Sequence record: OR062946.1
DNA length: 64,000 bases
Reading direction: 5' to 3' (one strand)
DNA from: Escherichia phage 310Ecol104PP
Position numbers and translations under genes: made by a program. A model generated the notes under the pieces. It ran no database searches, was not told the origin of the DNA, and worked only from the letters and a program-made list of their open reading frames with translations. Below are positions 40,710 through 50,942 of the stretch, piece by piece (position 1 is the first letter of the stretch; every line of letters starts with the position of its first letter).

Positions 40710-40765
40710 TTCCTCATGTTATGTCAGTAAGACTACTATAACACAACACGAGGGACTTGTAAACT
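40710..40765 (-). promoter_or_regulatory. early promoter/leader cassette, copy A, upstream of the alt.-3-like ORF
   Basis: Minus-strand GTTTAC - 18 nt - TATAGT then leader with GAGGAA; about 51 of 53 nt identical to copy B. Confidence 0.5.
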
Positions 40766-42821
40766 ACATCTTGAACTTTTTAGACATTCCGTTGATGTTA
40801 ATCAAAGAAGCCAAGATTTGAGAAACTTCGTTTTCCTCTTCTTTTGATTCTTCTACAAGGAATTGATTAAATCCAGCCATTGGACGAACTTCACCAGTTT
40901 CCATTAAATGGTCGCCATCATATACTGATTCTTCTAATTGTTCAGAAGGAGGAACGATTGTACCTTCGATTAGATACTTGTTATAAGCAGTTTCTTTCAT
41001 AAAGTACGTACTTACTTTATTAATCTTCAGTAAAATTCCACGCGGTAGAATAACTTCAGCTTCTGATGGAAATCCTGATAAATGACCTGGAACGATAACT
41101 TTGATTCGCTCAGCTCCTTTAATTACCATACCCACGCTAGTTTCAGCATCTTCAATGGCATATGTAGAATGACTACCCATATGCATTAAATCTTCTGCAT
41201 CAACGGAACCTTCTCCTTCGCCAGAAAATACTGCGCCGGAATCATCTAGAGCCATATAGTTTTTACCATGCTCACCGAAGATATTTGGTTTAAGTGATGT
41301 CGATACGAAGTTCTTGAAATAGAACATTTTGTTTTCAATGTTATGACGCAAAGTTTTAAAGGTAACTTCTTGTCCACGGTAAAGTGTAGTTCCTGGAGGA
41401 AGAACTGATCCTTTGGCAAAGGCAGAATCCAACGTCTCGATGTGCTTAATAGCTCGTTCCATATATTCTTCACGGGTAGAATCTGGTTTACCCAAAAGGA
41501 ACGAGTTCATTTCAACATATGAATCTGCACAATAATCTTCAATTACATCAGATTCAGCTTGGGTTAATCCTTTTGGAGTTACTTCGGTGCTTGCGTATTC
41601 ATATGCCTGGGCAGCAGATTCATTAATCAATTTATAAATGCCATTCATGACAAATTGAATAATAGCTGTCTTTTCATCTGGCGTAGCTTTAGAACCTTTA
41701 ACTAAATCATTAATAATTTTCTTAATAACATCAAAGCTATTAGAAATATTAATGTCAGCAAGATCGCTTAAAATTTTATCAGTTTTATAATCAAAGAATT
41801 CTTTATTCTTTAAATATTCTTGAGAACCTTGATATGTTATATCGCTCTGCAACTTGATAGATGGATCACGTAAACGTGCATGGGCTAATGCAATATGATT
41901 TCGGAAGTTTTCTAGTTCGTAATCGCTAGATTTAAAACGAGAAGCACTTCTCATACCACCAATAGCTCCTTTGCTGAAGTTTGAACCAATCTGAATAACG
42001 CCAGAGTTCATTGGTCCTTCTGCTTTATACACCGGAACTTTAGATTCAAACTCTTGATATTTCTTAGCAGCGAAGCTATCACCATGAAGTGAAGCATCGA
42101 CAGTAGAATATTGAGCTTGTGCTGCTAATCGACGACTAATTTTAGTTTTCTGAATAACAGCTTGATCAGTGCGCTTATCATTTTCTAAAGCAATAGAAGC
42201 AGCAACAGCGACAGCTTTAGGAACAGCATTACCTGTTTTAACGTCTACATAAACATCACCAACCTTTGATTCAACTTTTGTGAATAACTCAGTTGAAATA
42301 GGAGGTACACCTGGAATGTCTTCTAAATTGGCATTTTTACGGTAAACCATAATATATGCATATTTCTTATCATAGTCCCAGATTTCCTTTAAGAGAACAT
42401 ATCGACCTGCTCCTTTAGTACGTACTAAACGGTCAGCAATAACTTGCATTTGACGAGCTGCGCCATTTGTTTTACTCTTTAGTACGCGGAATAGGCATGC
42501 GTCGATTTTATACTGTTTCATTGTTTGAAGAGCAGTATCAAAAACAGCATTAATGACGCCAATTGGATTTCCACCCAAGTTTCTAAGCTTAACCAGCGAT
42601 AATTTCTCGTTGACACCTATCATTACGATATGCATCATTTTATCGCCCGGCTTAACGTTTTTATTTGTATCACCGCCAGAGGTGTATGTACAAAATCTAA
42701 ATCCAGGAAGCACGCTTTCTTCACCGGCTTGAATAGCAAAAATTTGAGGTATTTTATGCTTAGGATTTAAGTTAACAACCGGCGCCGAAGCGCCGTCAAA
42801 TAATTCTGTAATAAGTTCCAT
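40764..42821 (-). CDS. Alt-family ADP-ribosyltransferase paralog (685 aa), probable packaged internal protein
   Basis: N-terminus MELITELFDG; C-terminal R (TTLYRGQ), STS (FVSTSL) and EAE (SEAEVILPRG) motifs. Confidence 0.85.
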   Translation of the reverse strand: MELITELFDGASAPVVNLNPKHKIPQIFAIQAGEESVLPGFRFCTYTSGGDTNKNVKPGDKMMHIVMIGVNEKLSLVKLRNLGGNPIGVINAVFDTALQTMKQYKIDACLFRVLKSKTNGAARQMQVIADRLVRTKGAGRYVLLKEIWDYDKKYAYIMVYRKNANLEDIPGVPPISTELFTKVESKVGDVYVDVKTGNAVPKAVAVAASIALENDKRTDQAVIQKTKISRRLAAQAQYSTVDASLHGDSFAAKKYQEFESKVPVYKAEGPMNSGVIQIGSNFSKGAIGGMRSASRFKSSDYELENFRNHIALAHARLRDPSIKLQSDITYQGSQEYLKNKEFFDYKTDKILSDLADINISNSFDVIKKIINDLVKGSKATPDEKTAIIQFVMNGIYKLINESAAQAYEYASTEVTPKGLTQAESDVIEDYCADSYVEMNSFLLGKPDSTREEYMERAIKHIETLDSAFAKGSVLPPGTTLYRGQEVTFKTLRHNIENKMFYFKNFVSTSLKPNIFGEHGKNYMALDDSGAVFSGEGEGSVDAEDLMHMGSHSTYAIEDAETSVGMVIKGAERIKVIVPGHLSGFPSEAEVILPRGILLKINKVSTYFMKETAYNKYLIEGTIVPPSEQLEESVYDGDHLMETGEVRPMAGFNQFLVEESKEEENEVSQILASLININGMSKKFKM

Positions 42822-42824
42822 GAT

Positions 42825-44921
42825 TTATCCTTGAACGAACTTGTAAGGCATGTTTGTAATATCTATGCAAGACGCAATAATTCCAAGAGATGATTCTACT
42901 TTCTGTTTAATATTTGATGAAACAAATGATGCAAAGTCAACTCTGTCTTCTATTTCAATATCACCTGTCATTGCAACTACTTCGCCGGTTTCCATTAAAT
43001 GGTCTCCGTCATAGATTACCGATTCAGTGAGTTCTTCTGTGGTCATAACTTCAGCTTGAATGAGTTTTGTATTATTAGACGTGGTTCCGTCATTATTAGA
43101 AGCATCAGTTATTTTATTAACTTTAACCATCAATCCGCGCGGTAGAATAACTTCAGCTTCTGTTGCTATTCCGAGACTTCCTGGATATACAACATTAACT
43201 TTATGAGCTCCATCAATTGCCCATCCTATTTGAACTTTAACGTATTCAGGATTTTCTTTATACGCTCTTATTTCGTTTGGATTAATAGTTATTCCTTCTT
43301 CATTTTTATCAACCGTTAATTCGTTACGAGCTTCTGGTTCTAAAAGACCAATACCAGCATGTGTAATTCCAAAACGCCCAAAAATGATAGGAGTTAAAGA
43401 AGTAGATACAAAATTTCTGAAATAGAACACTTTATTTTTAACTAGTGCTTCGTATATAGGAGCAGTCATACTTTGAGCACGATAAACTGTGATGCCTTCC
43501 GGTATGCGGTCACCATTTTCAAAAGCTGAATCTAAGTTATTTATAGCAGATTCAATTTCTTTTTCACTCATTACATCATATCGTTCTGGATTGTAACGAC
43601 CTAAAAGAAGATTATTAATGTCAGTATATCCTGAACCACAATACTCTCTAATGCCGCGCTTTTGTGATGGAGTATATTTAGAACCATCACGGGCAATAGT
43701 AATATCAATCATTGGACCTGCACCAATTCCAGAAAAACTATAAATCATTCTTTTGAGGAATTTAGTTTTTGCTGCGTTCCAGGAATTTTTAGTCATTTCT
43801 TCCCAGACTTCATCTGGCTGCCCTTTACGAGTTTTATTATGTTTATCAAGCCAATTATCTTTATATTCTTCAAAGAGTTGATTAACAGCTGCTGCGTATT
43901 TCTCTAAACATTTTATTGAAGTAGTTGGTTCATTTTTAATCGCATTAAGAATTACATCTTTAATTTTTTCAGAAACTTCATTAACCTCACTTTTTGAAAA
44001 GAATTTATAGTCATAATGAAGTTCATTCGCAGTTCCTTCGGCAATAATTTTTGCTGCCTTAGTTTTAGAAGCTAATGAATTAATTCCAAGCTTCATTTCT
44101 TCTGCTTCGGGAATTAAAGGAGCGGTAGCAGGTTTATTGAAATTAGCTGCGGTAGATTCATACTTCTGGAATAATTCACTTTCAAATCTAGAAGATTCCA
44201 ATGATTGACTTTGCGCAATTGCTCTACGGGAAATTTTAACTTTAACGATTACAGCTTGGTCAGAACGTTTATCATTTTCTTGTGCAATAGATGCTGCAAT
44301 TGCCTCATTTTTAGTTACTTGAGCTCCAGTATCTTTATTGATATAAACATCGCCGACTTTCGATTCAACTTTAGTAAAGAGCTCGGTACTAATTTCCGGA
44401 ACTCCTGGAATGTCTTCTAGTGATACATTTTTGCGATGTATAAGAATATATGCATACTTTTTATCATAATCCCAGAGTTCCTTAAGAAGGACGTATCTGC
44501 CACCTGAACGACTACGGATAAGTCTATCAGCAATAACTTGAATTTGTCGAGCTTGACCAGCGGTTTTAGACTTAAGAATACGAAGCATACAAGCATCAAT
44601 TTTATACTGACGCATTGTTTGCATTGCAACAGTAAAAACTGAATTGATATAATTAATTGGGCTTGGACCGAGACCTTTTAATTTAGCAATTGAACCTTTG
44701 GCAGTTAATGTAAAAGGAACAATATGCATCATTTTATCGCCCATCTTTAAATCGCGATTAGTATCACCTCCAGATGTATAGGTGCATAAACGAAAGCCTG
44801 GTTGTTCAATTGCATCATCAACACGAACTGAAAAAATTTGCGGTATTTTCTTCTTTGGATTTAAGTTTGTAATCGGAAGAGTAGTATCTTCGTCAAATAA
44901 TTCTGTAATAAGTTCCATCAT
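42825..44921 (-). CDS. alt: Alt ADP-ribosyltransferase (698 aa), packaged internal protein
   Basis: N-terminus MMELITELFDED; motifs R (ITVYRAQ), STS (FVSTSL), EAE (TEAEVILPRG); TATAAATA-type late promoter on the minus strand about 20 nt upstream. Confidence 0.8.
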   Translation of the reverse strand: MMELITELFDEDTTLPITNLNPKKKIPQIFSVRVDDAIEQPGFRLCTYTSGGDTNRDLKMGDKMMHIVPFTLTAKGSIAKLKGLGPSPINYINSVFTVAMQTMRQYKIDACMLRILKSKTAGQARQIQVIADRLIRSRSGGRYVLLKELWDYDKKYAYILIHRKNVSLEDIPGVPEISTELFTKVESKVGDVYINKDTGAQVTKNEAIAASIAQENDKRSDQAVIVKVKISRRAIAQSQSLESSRFESELFQKYESTAANFNKPATAPLIPEAEEMKLGINSLASKTKAAKIIAEGTANELHYDYKFFSKSEVNEVSEKIKDVILNAIKNEPTTSIKCLEKYAAAVNQLFEEYKDNWLDKHNKTRKGQPDEVWEEMTKNSWNAAKTKFLKRMIYSFSGIGAGPMIDITIARDGSKYTPSQKRGIREYCGSGYTDINNLLLGRYNPERYDVMSEKEIESAINNLDSAFENGDRIPEGITVYRAQSMTAPIYEALVKNKVFYFRNFVSTSLTPIIFGRFGITHAGIGLLEPEARNELTVDKNEEGITINPNEIRAYKENPEYVKVQIGWAIDGAHKVNVVYPGSLGIATEAEVILPRGLMVKVNKITDASNNDGTTSNNTKLIQAEVMTTEELTESVIYDGDHLMETGEVVAMTGDIEIEDRVDFASFVSSNIKQKVESSLGIIASCIDITNMPYKFVQG

Positions 44922-45159: not shown

Positions 45160-46619
45160 AGACCAGTTACCTCATGAAAATCACCAAATACATCTTCGAA
45201 TGTATTAGCTTTAGTTTTATCTTCACGTAAACGAATCGCAATCGGAAGAAATAATTTAACGTAATCAGTGCGGCCATCGGATTTTAACCAACCGTTGCAT
45301 TCGCACTCTAGAATTTTTCCAATATAATAATTTTGGTTTTCCATAATGCGAGTACGGTCAAGTTCATGTGATTTTACACCGGCTTTATCTTTTAAGCCTG
45401 AACCAGCATTTACTTTAATTTTTCCACACTCTGATTCAAGAATAAATCCACCTGCTTTAGTAGGGTCTTTACGGTGAGGATAAATTCCTACAATTTTTAA
45501 ATCAACATCAATTACTTCTTTAAATTTATAGAGATTTTTTGAACGAGCATTTTCCCACAATCCATCGGTATTTTTGAGAATAATACCTTCAAGACCTTGG
45601 TCAATATACTTTTTATAAATTACCTTAGCTTCATCTAGGTTATTTACTACCTGGTTTTCAATTAAAATTACTTTATCATATCCTGATGTCATTTGTTCTA
45701 GTTTAGAAAAACGTACATCATATTTTAAACGAAATGCTGGAAGACCGTATATTTCTACCAACGGAACATAATCCCAGACCTGAAACTTCATGCATTGAGC
45801 TTCTTTTTCTGAAATAGTTCCCTTTAAAGATTTATTAGCGATTCCATTAGAAGTAGTACGTGATTCAGCTACTTCAGCAAACTCTTTAGCTTTACTAATT
45901 TCAGGATAAGCATCAAAAAGAAAATCTAGGCCTTCTGGCTCCTTTTTAACTTGCTCATGGTATACCAATTCGCCATCAATTAACACACCTTCTGGATGAA
46001 TCTGGCGGGCTTCAGCGGTCATTTTGATTAACTCTTCCTTAAGAAGATCTAATCCTAGATATTCATTACCAGCTCGTGATAAAAGACGGACATCATCTAA
46101 TTCATCACCTCTAACTTCAGCAAAACACCGAGCTCCATCTGCTTTTAATTGTGCAAAGGCTGGAAATTTGATATTCTTACTAATGCCTTTTTCATCATAA
46201 GAACTTGCGAGCATTTGAGGTTGTTCAGGAATTAAACCTGGCCAAACTTTGTTCGCAATAGATACTGAAGCGCCACATTCAAGATCTCGCATCATCACTC
46301 GACGCAAAACTTCAACATCATCTTTTTTACCATCGGTGATGTATCCAGTTAATTCCTCAATTGCAGCATTTCCAGTCAATTTCCGAGTAGCTAACGTGAA
46401 TTCAATGAAGTCAAGCATATCGGTAATAGTCAGCATTCCAAAACTCTGGGTAGCAATACCAGGTTTAGGCCATTTCTTTATATAATACTGTAACCCACGA
46501 GAATAAGTCAGACGATATACTCGTTTAAGCAATTCATTATCTTTATTCTTTTCAAGAATTGCTTGCTTCTGCTTAGTTGAACCAATAGATGCTATTTCGT
46601 TCAGAATTTTAAGAATCAT
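45156..46619 (-). CDS. 30: ATP-dependent DNA ligase gp30
   Basis: 487 aa; N-terminus MILKILNEIASIGSTKQKQAILEKN; adenylation motif KADGAR. Confidence 0.95.
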   Translation of the reverse strand: MILKILNEIASIGSTKQKQAILEKNKDNELLKRVYRLTYSRGLQYYIKKWPKPGIATQSFGMLTITDMLDFIEFTLATRKLTGNAAIEELTGYITDGKKDDVEVLRRVMMRDLECGASVSIANKVWPGLIPEQPQMLASSYDEKGISKNIKFPAFAQLKADGARCFAEVRGDELDDVRLLSRAGNEYLGLDLLKEELIKMTAEARQIHPEGVLIDGELVYHEQVKKEPEGLDFLFDAYPEISKAKEFAEVAESRTTSNGIANKSLKGTISEKEAQCMKFQVWDYVPLVEIYGLPAFRLKYDVRFSKLEQMTSGYDKVILIENQVVNNLDEAKVIYKKYIDQGLEGIILKNTDGLWENARSKNLYKFKEVIDVDLKIVGIYPHRKDPTKAGGFILESECGKIKVNAGSGLKDKAGVKSHELDRTRIMENQNYYIGKILECECNGWLKSDGRTDYVKLFLPIAIRLREDKTKANTFEDVFGDFHEVTGL

Positions 46620-46885
46620 TGTTCATCCTTTAGAGTTTGGTTTACAGCTCTATTATAAATCAATTCATCATTAAGCTCAGTCAAAGACCTATGGTACGTG
46701 GTTCTAACTTTATTTCCTTGCATCCAGTGTTTGACGTAAATGAAACCTTGCTCTACACATTTTTTAAAAATTCGTTCGTCTTTTTGAGCTCGGAATTCTG
46801 GATTGCATCTAAAAAATTGATTTACGTGACCGTAATCACGTGTAGTATTACCTTCATTTTCATAAATAGTGTGAACGACAAACAT
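46616..46885 (-). CDS. hypothetical protein (T4 30.1-like position)
   Basis: 89 aa ORF; stop overlaps gene 30 start (ATGA). Confidence 0.65.
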   Translation of the reverse strand: MFVVHTIYENEGNTTRDYGHVNQFFRCNPEFRAQKDERIFKKCVEQGFIYVKHWMQGNKVRTTYHRSLTELNDELIYNRAVNQTLKDEQ

Positions 46886-47748
46886 TAGAATGCTCCTTGG
46901 AAAATATTATCACCACTAGTAAATCTATTAAAATACCCTGCATCACCAGGCTTAGTATAACTCCACGTATGGAATGGATTCATATGATACGGGTGTGTAT
47001 AATATGGATTATATGGATGTGTATAATATGGATTATACGGATTAAATCCAGGAGTTCTCCAGGTAGTGTTCCAACGAAAAGAATCGTTTTTAACCATCTT
47101 CTCAATTACATCTTTTATAGCTTTTTCACTATCAAAACTTTCTTTATTTTCCTTCGGTGAAAAAAGCTTATTTTCTACATCATTCCATGTATAAACTCGC
47201 TGAGCGGTTTTTGGAATATTGTCACGCTCTCCTCGCGCCATCCAATAAACAGGAACATTTAATATTTCACTCGCATGATCGCAGTGGTGAGCGAGATCGT
47301 CAATATAACAAATTACGTTATATTTCTCTTTTGCCTTTTTGAACAACTCTTCTTTTGAAGAATCATGACCACACATCATTACTTCTGAGAAGGCACCAGG
47401 AAAAAGAGCATTCAAATTAAATTGACGATTCAACAGAGCGTCAATAGAATCACCCAACGCTGTAACAGCTACAAAATTATAATCTTCTTTTAATTTGTTA
47501 ATTACGCACAGGGCGTCTTTATATGGAGACAAATAACGAATAAAATCTGAACGATTGTATTTTTCAATTAACTTGACGCCAAGTTCTTCATCACAATTAA
47601 AGAGTTTACCCGGAGAAATAAATTTCTCATCTTGAATCATTTTTAAAATATGTTCTAACGGAAGATTATATTTCTGAGCAAAATAAGGAAGGCCTGATTG
47701 CCAGCTTAAACATACTCCATCAATATCAGTTAAAATAGTAGGCTTCAT
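46885..47748 (-). CDS. HAD-superfamily phosphatase-like protein with Pro/Tyr-rich repeat tail (T4 30.2-like position)
   Basis: 287 aa; N-terminal motif ILTDIDGVCL (HAD motif I, DxDGV); C-terminal NPYNPYYTHPYNPYYTHPY encoded by a 24-bp tandem repeat. Confidence 0.7.
   Translation of the reverse strand: MKPTILTDIDGVCLSWQSGLPYFAQKYNLPLEHILKMIQDEKFISPGKLFNCDEELGVKLIEKYNRSDFIRYLSPYKDALCVINKLKEDYNFVAVTALGDSIDALLNRQFNLNALFPGAFSEVMMCGHDSSKEELFKKAKEKYNVICYIDDLAHHCDHASEILNVPVYWMARGERDNIPKTAQRVYTWNDVENKLFSPKENKESFDSEKAIKDVIEKMVKNDSFRWNTTWRTPGFNPYNPYYTHPYNPYYTHPYHMNPFHTWSYTKPGDAGYFNRFTSGDNIFQGAF
46993..47040 (-). repeat. 24-bp tandem direct repeat (2 copies) inside the HAD-like gene
   Basis: ggtgtgtataatatggattata / ggatgtgtataatatggattata; encodes YTHPYNPY twice. 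Confidence 0.7.
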
Positions 47749-48209
47749 AGAGAGTCTCTTAATAGATTTAACACATCAATAAATTCAGCTTCGGTTAGTA
47801 TTGTATCATCTTTTGTTAGACCACTAGCCATGCTGTGCTTCAAAACTTTTCCTTTCGAGGCTTGTAATGCATCGCGAAAGCCCTTGTTTTGGAACGCTGC
47901 TTCAAAATATGCATTTGTGTATAATTCTTTCCATGCTTCGGAATATCTTGAAAACGGAGTTCCAAGCCAGAACAACGTGCCACGGTCCTGAGCTCTAGCA
48001 TAAGCTCGTCCAGCTTGTTGGGCGGCAAGCCCGGATAACCCAAATATACGACGCTGTTGTTCAACATTTTTCACCTTGCATCCTTGGAGGAATCCTTCGA
48101 GACCTCCAAATTGAATACCATCCATAACGAAAGGCCATTGGGCGAAATTACTTAATGCGCATGATGGCCATCTAAAATTGCTTCTTATCTCTAGCTCAGA
48201 CATTTTCAA
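47745..48209 (-). CDS. NADAR / YbiA-like (DUF1768) domain protein (T4 30.3-like position)
   Basis: 154 aa; LSNFAQWPF...MDG...LEGFLQGCK matches the FSNFAxWP...DG...SEHYFQAxK pattern of E. coli YbiA from memory. Confidence 0.6.
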   Translation of the reverse strand: MKMSELEIRSNFRWPSCALSNFAQWPFVMDGIQFGGLEGFLQGCKVKNVEQQRRIFGLSGLAAQQAGRAYARAQDRGTLFWLGTPFSRYSEAWKELYTNAYFEAAFQNKGFRDALQASKGKVLKHSMASGLTKDDTILTEAEFIDVLNLLRDSL

Positions 48210-48402
48210 TACTTATAATTTCAACATCAGCCCAATGACCATAGCAAGGAAGACGAAATTCAACTGGCCAGTTAGGGTCCTTTTCTAATATAATAGACTG
48301 AACTTGTGGCTCTTCATATTCATCGGTATACGGACCTTTATACGTTACTTTATATGTGACCTTAATGTACTGAATTCCAAAAATCTTATTAATTATATTC
48401 AT
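48196..48402 (-). CDS. hypothetical protein
   Basis: 68 aa ORF in the operon-like array between gene 30 and rIII. Confidence 0.55.
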   Translation of the reverse strand: MNIINKIFGIQYIKVTYKVTYKGPYTDEYEEPQVQSIILEKDPNWPVEFRLPCYGHWADVEIISIENV

Positions 48403-48596
48403 ACTAATTCCTTTAATCCGTAAATAGGAGATAATTCATCACCCATACGAAGGTCTTCATTTCCATCTACCCAGGAAACAATATAAGCCTCTTTTATTTG
48501 AATACCACTCCATTTAAATGGAGGTAGAACCTTAGAAATTAATCCAGGTATACCAACTCCCTTTAATTCAACAGTTTGACCTAAAAAGAATTTCAT
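48399..48596 (-). CDS. hypothetical protein
   Basis: 65 aa ORF; start/stop overlaps with neighbours. Confidence 0.55.
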   Translation of the reverse strand: MKFFLGQTVELKGVGIPGLISKVLPPFKWSGIQIKEAYIVSWVDGNEDLRMGDELSPIYGLKELV

Positions 48597-48883
48597 TAGA
48601 ACCTCATCTGAAAACCATGCGATTTAACATTACCGCCGCCAATATCAGAAATGTTAATTTCACGCGCAATTGAAGGGTCAATGTCAATTTCACGATTAAG
48701 TTTAGTGATAGCTAAAGTATCGCGGCCATTTACAGTACGGAACTCTAAAGGGCAGACTATATTAACATAGTTTTTAATCGATTCACTAGTAGGCTGCAAA
48801 TGAGCAGGAAGGTCTTTAGGTGCCTTAGAGAAAACCACTTCACAGAAATTTTTGCGGGTATCAAAATAAGTAGTCATAAACAT
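48596..48883 (-). CDS. hypothetical protein
   Basis: 95 aa ORF; GAGGT Shine-Dalgarno; intercistronic hairpin upstream. Confidence 0.6.
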   Translation of the reverse strand: MFMTTYFDTRKNFCEVVFSKAPKDLPAHLQPTSESIKNYVNIVCPLEFRTVNGRDTLAITKLNREIDIDPSIAREINISDIGGGNVKSHGFQMRF

Positions 48884-48900
48884 AGTATTTACCTCAGTAA

Positions 48901-48914
48901 GGGGCCGAAGCCCC
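48901..48914 (-). other. intercistronic hairpin
   Basis: GGGGC-CGAA-GCCCC between an upstream stop and the next gene's Shine-Dalgarno. Confidence 0.5.
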
Positions 48915-48924
48915 TCATTTTATT

Positions 48925-49290
48925 TTAAATATCAAATTCGTTAAGAACTACATCAAAGATTGCTTCAAGATGCTCAGGTTTAGCTCTGTTACTCAGAATA
49001 TGACGAATCCAAGTTTTAACCAGAAGCTTGCGATTAACGCCATTCCAGCAAGGATGAGTCCCTAAATCGCGTTGACGAAAATCATCATCCAATGCGATTT
49101 TAAAAGAAGAACCTTCTTTCGTGATTGAAACCGTGATGCCATTTTCAAATCGCATATAAACGTAGTTAGGAGTCATATACTGTTCAATTTCGCATACTGA
49201 TCCATTTTGATGTTTCCAAAGGCAGATAGTATCAATAGAACCTGCAATACCGTTAGAAACATATTTACGTTCAAAGTTGATGTAATTCAT
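48925..49290 (-). CDS. hypothetical protein
   Basis: 121 aa ORF in the same array. Confidence 0.6.
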   Translation of the reverse strand: MNYINFERKYVSNGIAGSIDTICLWKHQNGSVCEIEQYMTPNYVYMRFENGITVSITKEGSSFKIALDDDFRQRDLGTHPCWNGVNRKLLVKTWIRHILSNRAKPEHLEAIFDVVLNEFDI

Positions 49291-49317
49291 TTTTATTCTC
49301 CGAGATGTTTAATTGCG

Positions 49318-49347
49318 GTACAGGTATATAATATCATATCCTGTACC
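49318..49347. other. perfect 8-bp inverted repeat GGTACAGG / CCTGTACC around a 14-nt A+T loop
   Basis: Read directly; intergenic between two minus-strand ORFs. Confidence 0.6.
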
Positions 49348-49360
49348 AAAGTAAACTATT

Positions 49361-49729
49361 TTATGCAACTTTAATCCAATTATCTAAATTTAATTCACCT
49401 TTGGCTTTCATTTTTTCAATCAAGAGGTCAGCGGTAATACGACCATTTTGATACCACGTAACATCTTCAGAGTAACCAGTTTCTTTATCTTCATAAGTCT
49501 CACAGCGAATTTTACCAAGAATCAAAGTTTTTAATTCGTATGTATCTCCAGTAAAAAAGTTAGTTAACATTATTTTCCAAGAGAAATCATCAGAAGGACC
49601 TTCAGGAGTCATGCAACCTACAAATTCAAATTGTTCTTTGTATAAGTGCCACTGAAGTTCTTTAGTTTCGATAGCTTTATAGCCGTCGTGGTCTTTACCT
49701 TTGATGTATGAGTTAAGATTGATTTTCAT
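49361..49729 (-). CDS. hypothetical protein
   Basis: 122 aa ORF; AAGGAG Shine-Dalgarno; GTTTAC-N18-TAGTAT promoter upstream. Confidence 0.65.
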   Translation of the reverse strand: MKINLNSYIKGKDHDGYKAIETKELQWHLYKEQFEFVGCMTPEGPSDDFSWKIMLTNFFTGDTYELKTLILGKIRCETYEDKETGYSEDVTWYQNGRITADLLIEKMKAKGELNLDNWIKVA

Positions 49730-49756
49730 TTTATTCTCCTTTGTTTGTGTAAGATA

Positions 49757-49786
49757 ATACTATCACAAAGGAGCCATACTGTAAAC
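49757..49786 (-). promoter_or_regulatory. early-type promoter for the 122-aa ORF
   Basis: Minus-strand GTTTAC - 18 nt - TAGTAT. Confidence 0.45.
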
Positions 49787-49800
49787 AACTTTGTGCAATC

Positions 49801-49838
49801 TTTGGAAAATAAAAAAGGACTCCCGAAGGAGTCCTTAA
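49801..49838 (-). terminator. intrinsic terminator after the small basic-protein ORF
   Basis: AAGGACTCC-TTCG-GGAGTCCTT followed by TTTTTTATTTTCC on the minus strand. Confidence 0.8.
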
Positions 49839-49839
49839 C

Positions 49840-50016
49840 TTATGCTTTCTGCTTACCAAAACGAGAAGCATCATCTCGAAGAACCGCACGTGCTCGGCGC
49901 ATGATCTTCTCAACAGTTTGATTGATACGAGAGTTCGACCCACGCTTGTAACCAGCGCGTTTAGAATCACCAACTTTCTTTTCAACTGCTTTCTTTGCTT
50001 TAGCTTGTTTTGCCAT
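49840..50016 (-). CDS. hypothetical small highly basic protein (58 aa from the internal ATG)
   Basis: MAKQAKAKKAVEKKVGDSKRAGYKRG...; strong hairpin plus T-run terminator immediately downstream; track ORF extends to 50058. Confidence 0.45.
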   Translation of the reverse strand: MAKQAKAKKAVEKKVGDSKRAGYKRGSNSRINQTVEKIMRRARAVLRDDASRFGKQKA

Positions 50017-50210
50017 TATAAATTCTCTTTTAAATGAAAATGCAGGACTTATTGGCATTGCCTGCGCAAGCCCTCAAGGGGTACTTAGGTTTTAAATATT
50101 TACCGACAGGATAACCATAAACCTCGTCAACATTCAAGAGGTACACCGTAAAACAAAGTTCGACGGCTCCTCGATTTTAGCTCACACTAAGGCAGTGACT
50201 CTCCAATAAA

Positions 50211-50459
50211 TTACTTCAGTGTTACCACAAAGTGACGAACTGCTTTTCGTGCGGCAGAAGCCAGAGGCTTAGCATACTTAAGTTCATCTTTTTCCTGGAG
50301 CTCAGCGGCTAATGCAGTTTGAGCAGGATTCAGATGTTTGAAATAACGCAGGATTTCAAGAGCTTCGGCTTCAACATCAATAGATGCGCCATAGTTTTCG
50401 TGACCATTATTCCATGCGTTTCGTTGCAGTTCAAGAGCGTATTGTAATTGTTTAATCAT
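50211..50459 (-). CDS. rIII: rIII lysis-inhibition accessory protein
   Basis: 82 aa, T4 rIII length; position next to gene 31. Confidence 0.85.
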   Translation of the reverse strand: MIKQLQYALELQRNAWNNGHENYGASIDVEAEALEILRYFKHLNPAQTALAAELQEKDELKYAKPLASAARKAVRHFVVTLK

Positions 50460-50598
50460 TTAAAAATTCTCGTTAGAGATTAAAACTCGGTAGTCACGTT
50501 CTTCTGAATTTCATCTTCTTTCGACAGATCTCTCAGTTGTAGACTACCACGTAGAATTGTTCGGTTAACTTATTATTCCGACACCCAATTCATATTAT

Positions 50599-50606
50599 TA
50601 TTTATA
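50599..50606 (-). promoter_or_regulatory. late promoter upstream of rIII
   Basis: Minus-strand TATAAATA immediately after the gene 31 stop. Confidence 0.5.
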
Positions 50607-50942
50607 TCACTTATAAAGACACGGAATAGCTTTATAGTGACAAGTAACGAATTTTTGTTTAATTTCTTTTGGCTGCTTAAGACCCAGAGCTACAAAAGGA
50701 TGCGGAACGTTTCGAATTTGACCAACTGGAAGAGAAGTCAAATCACCAACTTCGCAGAAACCTTCAGGAACATCAGGACCAACAGAGTGAACTACACACA
50801 GTTCAGGAACTTCACCTTGGACACGTTTACCGATAATAAGTCCTGATTCTGTAACTTCTTCATCGCCGGCTTGTGCAGGTTCAGAAACTAAAATAACATA
50901 TTCACCGACAGCACGAATTGGTAGCTGTTGTACTTCAGACAT
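50607..50942 (-). CDS. 31: gp31 co-chaperonin (GroES-like) for capsid protein folding
   Basis: 111 aa, T4 gp31 length; MotA-box middle promoter upstream. Confidence 0.9.

Follow-up and report, generated by a model that had tools for sequence, protein, structure and literature searches.

Escherichia phage 310Ecol104PP carries a near-identical ortholog of the T4 anti-DarT factor NADAR (AdfN)

T4 30.3 was reportedly listed among the NADARs by De Souza and Aravind. Guanine ADP-ribosylation by DarT1 is reversed by NADARs (Schuller et al., 2023, PMC11543638), and in a 2024 study T4 gp30.3 removed guanosine-linked, but not thymidine-linked, ADP-ribose in vitro (PMC11125620). Johannesman et al. (2025, PMC11825919) mapped resistance to DarTG1 to this gene by recombination and renamed it adfN (anti-DarT factor NADAR). 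Deletion of adfN sensitized T4 and T2 to DarTG1, RB69 was rescued by ectopic adfN expression, and the gene was found to be both necessary and sufficient for T-even resistance; E36A, K43A, and a C-terminal truncation each impaired T4 AdfN (PMC11825919). In a T4 transposon screen (HIDEN-SEQ preprint, bioRxiv 10.1101/2025.11.20.689424), insertions in 30.3/adfN were lost specifically on DarTG1 hosts. On K-12, a host without DarTG1, adfN is non-essential (PMC11825919; bioRxiv 10.1101/2025.11.20.689424). AdfN was identified by bioinformatics between 2012 and 2023, and experimental proof followed in 2024–2025.

T4 AdfN does not neutralize DarT1 when cells are uninfected and gives very little rescue of phages other than T-even phages (PMC11825919; PMC11125620), and the published mechanism is therefore incomplete. 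As T4-type AdfN is fully active only in T-even infection, either a partner encoded by the phage or a DNA state specific to it is implied. These results suggest a T-even-specific partner, which would be a matter for the whole family and not special to the DNA described here.

The window analyzed in this study is a stretch of 64,000 nucleotides of Escherichia phage 310Ecol104PP (OR062946.1). An earlier note, made from the letters of this DNA alone, had pointed to an ORF of 154 aa with the motif LSNFAQWPFVMDG...LEGFLQGCK as a NADAR/YbiA-like protein. We assign a probability of about 95% to the reading that this ORF is the ortholog of T4 adfN and encodes a stand-alone NADAR-fold ADP-ribosylglycohydrolase countering host DarTG1. 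AdfN is a textbook-style phage 'orphan antitoxin' that undoes a DNA-modifying defense of the host, and the window allele adds little to that picture. The practical value lies in annotation: many database records, including the best DNA matches, label the gene 'hypothetical protein'.

Gene 30.3 of a T4-like phage

The gene and its direct neighbors are located as follows.

47745..48203, minus strand: coding sequence of adfN (gene 30.3), 152 aa from ATG, stop included (ORF list and sequence)
46885..47748, minus strand: gene 30.2, 287 aa, directly downstream of adfN (ORF list, synteny)
48196..48402, minus strand: gene 30.4, 68 aa, directly upstream of adfN, with its stop within the first adfN codons
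47840..48067, minus strand: 30.3' ORF, 75 codons, in the +1 frame inside adfN; the annotated 30.3' of T4, with a match to PHROG 14037
49815..49836, minus strand: strong terminator-like hairpin AAGGACTCCTTCGGGAGTCCTT followed by a T-run, on the coding strand

The ORF with the quoted motif is real and lies on the minus strand, where it can be read from TTG 48209 (154 aa) or from ATG 48203 (152 aa) to the stop at 47745. The TTG start adds two codons, and both residues fall outside the T4 annotation. ATG 48203 is more likely to be the start, since the same start is annotated in both T4 and Shigella phage A2 and its numbering reproduces the published T4 residues E36 and K43. TTG 48209 was dropped; the ORF and motif of the earlier note stand, and its length of 154 aa is less likely than 152 aa. 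Read from this ATG, adfN and the stop of upstream 30.4 have 8 nt in common, and there is a 4-nt overlap between the adfN stop and the ATG of downstream 30.2; translation of 30.2 is possibly coupled to that of adfN through this 4-nt overlap. A promoter and terminator scan of 46500..50700 was uninformative, with 17 promoter-like sites compared to 13.6 expected. The hairpin listed above overlaps the 3' end of a 72-aa ORF (49840..50058) and lies upstream of 30.8.

The protein matched Pfam PF08010, Phage_30_3 ('Bacteriophage protein GP30.3'), over model positions 1–138 of 138 with an E-value of 1.5e-68 and 229.3 bits, and the 465-bp stretch matched at least 665 phage records at 80–99% DNA identity. 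Given the curated PF08010 cut-off of 36 bits and this number of records, the ORF is far beyond chance. Nearly all matches were Escherichia, Shigella, or Yersinia T4-like phages, with Shigella phage A2 as the best (98.9%); the A2 protein is 100% identical to the window protein. A match to PHROG 652, labeled as function unknown in that database, was also obtained. Compared to T4 gp30.3, 147 of 152 residues are identical (97%) over the full length with no gaps. The five substitutions (T4 residue first) are S67A, V82T, P89E, I104F, and I125M, all of them outside the conserved columns of a family alignment of 55 sequences that extends down to 35% identity.

The gene order of the window is that of T4: 27, 28, 29, 48, 54, alt.-3, alt, alt.1, 30 (DNA ligase), 30.1, 30.2, 30.3, 30.4 ... 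rIII, 31, cd. In T4, in A2, and in 13 T-even loci from IMG/VR, adfN has the same position, flanked by 30.4 and 30.2 and lying upstream of ligase gene 30 and alt. Based on the DNA matches and the T4 gene order, the window is assigned to a Tequatrovirus (T4-like) genome and the ORF to gene 30.3, the ortholog of T4 30.3/adfN. By sequence comparison, the gene is thus one already known, a near-identical and apparently functional allele of the characterized anti-defense enzyme AdfN.

The region 46885..48600 is mosaic with respect to T4 and A2. The 30.2 and 30.3 proteins are 100% identical to those of A2, and 30.4 and 30.5 are T4-like (93% and 100%, respectively); in A2, 30.4 is a different one (50%) and 30.5 was not detected.

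The T4 annotation describes 30.3' as 'internal translation in a different reading frame'. This frame is open in 14 of 15 close relatives (down to 79% nucleotide identity). Its ATG is replaced in seven of the 15, six of which have an ATG one codon later. The peptide drifts freely, which together with the replaced start codons argues against strong selection on 30.3'.

At the N-terminus of gp30.2, the HAD-like motif TDIDGV was found; searches of Pfam, NCBIfam, PADLOC, and PDB sequences gave no match for this protein. Some GenBank records name it phosphatase or 5'-3' deoxyribonucleotidase. Its C-terminus has a stretch of 10 residues more than the T4 protein (278 aa), which produces a tandem duplication of YNPYYTHP.

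NADAR fold and catalytic residues

The Pfam NADAR model (PF08719, formerly DUF1768) did not match the window protein alone at E ≤ 1, and phmmer against the PDB gave no match at E ≤ 10. NCBIfam and PADLOC models did not match AdfN either. Pfam places gp30.3 proteins in a family of their own, apart from PF08719. As these single-sequence searches with the NADAR model and against the PDB gave nothing, the link to NADARs needs profile or structure methods. A profile of 55 AdfN homologs against the PDB gave a single match, E. coli YbiA (2b3w), with an E-value of 0.009. The match spans the motif given in the earlier note and aligns E36 with YbiA E48 and K43 with YbiA K55. Of these 55 gp30.3-family members, 22 individually matched PF08719 (best E-value 1.5e-7), and several metagenomic AdfN homologs carry the JGI name 'YbiA (DUF1768 family)'.

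An AlphaFold2 model generated from the alignment had a mean pLDDT of 93.9 and a pTM of 0.89. In a Foldseek search of the PDB with this model, the top three matches were YbiA, the Phytophthora nicotianae NADAR with ADP-ribose (8bau), and the Geobacter lovleyi NADAR (8bat), and all further matches had a probability of 0.01. The predicted structure has the alpha+beta fold of NADARs, and only NADAR structures matched it. Taking together the profile match to YbiA, the PF08719 matches of 22 of the 55 members, and the model with its Foldseek matches, the predicted fold of AdfN is unambiguously that of a NADAR. The NADAR/YbiA assignment was thus borne out by the family profile and Foldseek, not by the single sequence.

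Large viral contigs (≤424 kb) in IMG/VR (loci L018–L082) also encode gp30.3-family NADARs, at approximately 40% identity and without Alt, 30.2, or ligase neighbors. Some gp30.3-family homologs (P0028, P0032, and P0033) are 201 aa long and have an N-terminal extension.

The residues and the structural element relevant for activity are encoded at the following positions.

48096..48098, minus strand: Glu36, the catalytic glutamate, codon GAA (sequence; aligned with YbiA E48, PDB chain numbering)
48075..48077, minus strand: Lys43, codon AAG (sequence; aligned with YbiA K55)
47835..47837, minus strand: His123, codon CAC, in the last beta-strand (sequence; model strand 120–122)
47751..47792, minus strand: C-terminal alpha-helix, residues 138–151 (AlphaFold2 model)

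Both E36 and H123 are invariant among the 55 family sequences, with K43 conserved in 90% or more; in the model, His123 is located at the end of the predicted strand 120–122. The presence of the catalytic residues, which the earlier note had left to be checked, was therefore confirmed. E36 was described as a conserved NADAR catalytic residue in the AdfN study (PMC11825919). The glutamate and the lysine of NADARs (E88 and K95 in the E. coli C7 enzyme) act in ADP-ribose binding and hydrolysis, and the lysine (P. nicotianae K50, E. coli C7 K95) was linked to phosphate coordination (PMC11543638). The E36A variant of T4 AdfN was inactive in vitro, and K43A was impaired (PMC11825919). A third, charged catalytic residue is located in the last strand: Glu in YbiA, Asp in DarT-linked NADARs (BC4488), and His, the hallmark of phage NADARs, in gp30.3 (PMC11543638; PMC11125620).

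Based on the published work, the following course of infection is proposed. In a DarTG1 host, the DarT1 toxin ADP-ribosylates guanines of the phage DNA and blocks replication. AdfN would then hydrolyze the bond between guanine and ADP-ribose by means of Glu36, Lys43, and the phage-specific His123, with the C-terminal helix required for full activity, and, acting as an 'orphan antitoxin', would restore phage replication. Removal of DarT-written ADP-ribose from guanine by NADARs, which the earlier note had mentioned, has been shown (PMC11543638; PMC11125620), and the counter-defense against DNA ADP-ribosylation that it considered has been shown for the 97%-identical T4 ortholog (PMC11125620; PMC11825919; bioRxiv 10.1101/2025.11.20.689424). 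For the window protein itself, this analysis established that it is an ortholog, that it has the fold and the conserved catalytic residues, and that its length is intact. With its five substitutions at non-conserved positions, we infer that the window allele behaves like T4 AdfN.

As YbiA is the top sequence-level relative of AdfN in the PDB, the protein might instead act on small soluble ADP-ribose derivatives or riboflavin intermediates, either as a YbiA-like N-glycosidase or by degrading an NAD-derived immune signal. We consider this highly improbable. The idea was put forward before the experiments were done, T4 gp30.3 strips DNA of ADP-ribose in vitro, loss of gp30.3 has a DarTG1-specific phenotype, and the last-strand glutamate of the YbiA family is a histidine in AdfN.

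Inactivating frameshifts do arise in gene 30.3. RB69, the one DarTG1-sensitive T-even phage, has lost the last 15 residues, and with them the C-terminal helix, through a frameshift (PMC11825919). The window copy could likewise be decayed and without current function, a reading that is scarcely credible here: the frame is full length with neither a gap nor a frameshift relative to T4, none of the catalytic or invariant residues is missing, and the C-terminal helix (residues 138–151) is predicted with high confidence. At the sequence level, decay was refuted. This copy of adfN is intact, having both the catalytic residues and the C-terminal helix, and plaque formation by the phage on E. coli or Shigella with DarTG1 is therefore predicted.

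Alt-type neighbors and a possible partner

Two genes for ADP-ribosyltransferases are found on the same strand as adfN.

42825..44921, minus strand: Alt-type ADP-ribosyltransferase, 698 aa (PF03496, E-value 1.3e-37)
40764..42821, minus strand: second full-length Alt paralog, 685 aa (PF03496, E-value 6.1e-20)

The paralogs are arranged in tandem and are 41% identical to each other. The protein encoded at 42825..44921 shares only 70% identity with T4 Alt but 98% with the A2 copy. In T4, the slot of the second gene contains no more than the remnants alt.-1 and alt.-2. Motifs of the R / STS / ExE type are present in both paralogs, and the layout with two Alts is common to Shigella phage A2 and some T-even genomes in IMG/VR. 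Between adfN and the Alt gene at 42825..44921 lie 30.2, 30.1, DNA ligase gene 30, and alt.1, so the distance of four genes from two ADP-ribosyltransferases had been given correctly.

This proximity could mean that AdfN reverses or tunes ADP-ribosylation by the phage's own two Alt-type transferases, instead of or besides countering DarT1. The two intact PF03496 genes, at a distance of four genes and on the strand of adfN, speak for such a role, and T4-like phages express NADAR genes early, together with their ARTs (Iyer et al., 2022). Neither Alt nor ModA or ModB is named in the AdfN paper (PMC11825919), and the literature examined held no direct test of Alt tuning. We nevertheless judge it very unlikely, for several reasons. 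In the published assays examined, NADARs including T4 gp30.3 take guanosine-linked, not thymidine-linked, ADP-ribose off DNA, and Alt is a protein modifier according to the annotation of the T4 record. The phenotype of adfN deletion is wholly explained by DarTG1, and the gene is dispensable on K-12, which lacks DarTG1.

Alt ADP-ribosylates proteins. Synteny was compared in 80 viral loci encoding gp30.3-family proteins, 65 of them distant, by tblastn, which has limited sensitivity for divergent ARTs. Only T-even-like genomes had Alt, ligase, and 30.2 alongside the NADAR gene. Approximately 50 of the 65 distant loci had none of the three within 6 kb, as far as tblastn detects them, since very divergent ARTs would be missed. 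The proximity of Alt to adfN therefore looks like T-even synteny. The proximity was rejected as evidence of functional coupling of Alt and NADAR, as it held only in T-even-like loci. The idea that the gene tunes the phage's own Alt-type modifications, raised in the earlier note, is thus unsupported and is not needed to explain adfN.

A further possibility combines the DarTG1-directed role with a partner of AdfN encoded nearby, for example gp30.2, and with editing by AdfN of nucleic-acid ADP-ribosylation by the phage's own transferases in two-Alt phages; we regard it as quite unlikely. The text of the HIDEN-SEQ preprint never names 30.2. This silence, together with the lack of 30.2 and Alt at most distant loci, argues against a non-redundant role of gp30.2.

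Comparison with known systems

The closest described system is T4 gp30.3/AdfN. The window protein shares with it 97% identity over 152 residues, the start, E36, K43, His123, and the C-terminal helix. The neighbors are also the same, with 30.4 upstream, 30.2 downstream, and ligase and alt beyond. The two phages differ in that the window phage has two full-length Alts, whereas T4 has one and remnants.

In contrast to DarG1 (the DarT1-associated NADAR antitoxin of the BC4488 family, for example the NADARs of Geobacter lovleyi, 8bat, and E. coli C7), the window AdfN is an orphan with no adjacent darT; its neighbors are 30.4 and 30.2, with no DarT gene among them. It is shorter than the DarG1-type NADAR (152 compared to 219 aa) and has His123 where DarG1 has Asp at the last-strand catalytic position. 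T4 AdfN cannot substitute for the DarG1 antitoxin in uninfected cells.

E. coli YbiA (2b3w, PF08719) is the best match to AdfN both at the sequence level and by Foldseek and has the same motif, SNFxxxP...DG...E.F.Q..K. Both YbiA and T4 gp30.3 remove guanosine-linked ADP-ribose in vitro (PMC11125620). However, YbiA is only approximately 20% identical to AdfN and has Glu in place of the phage His123. It belongs to a LexA-controlled host operon and was linked to N-glycosidase activity on riboflavin intermediates.

The AdfN proteins of Bas32 and Bas60 (T5-like and Vequintavirinae phages) are likewise phage-borne orphan NADARs that counter DarTG1. They belong to other NADAR branches and were acquired independently, and they neutralize DarT1 without phage infection, whereas the T4-type protein does not.
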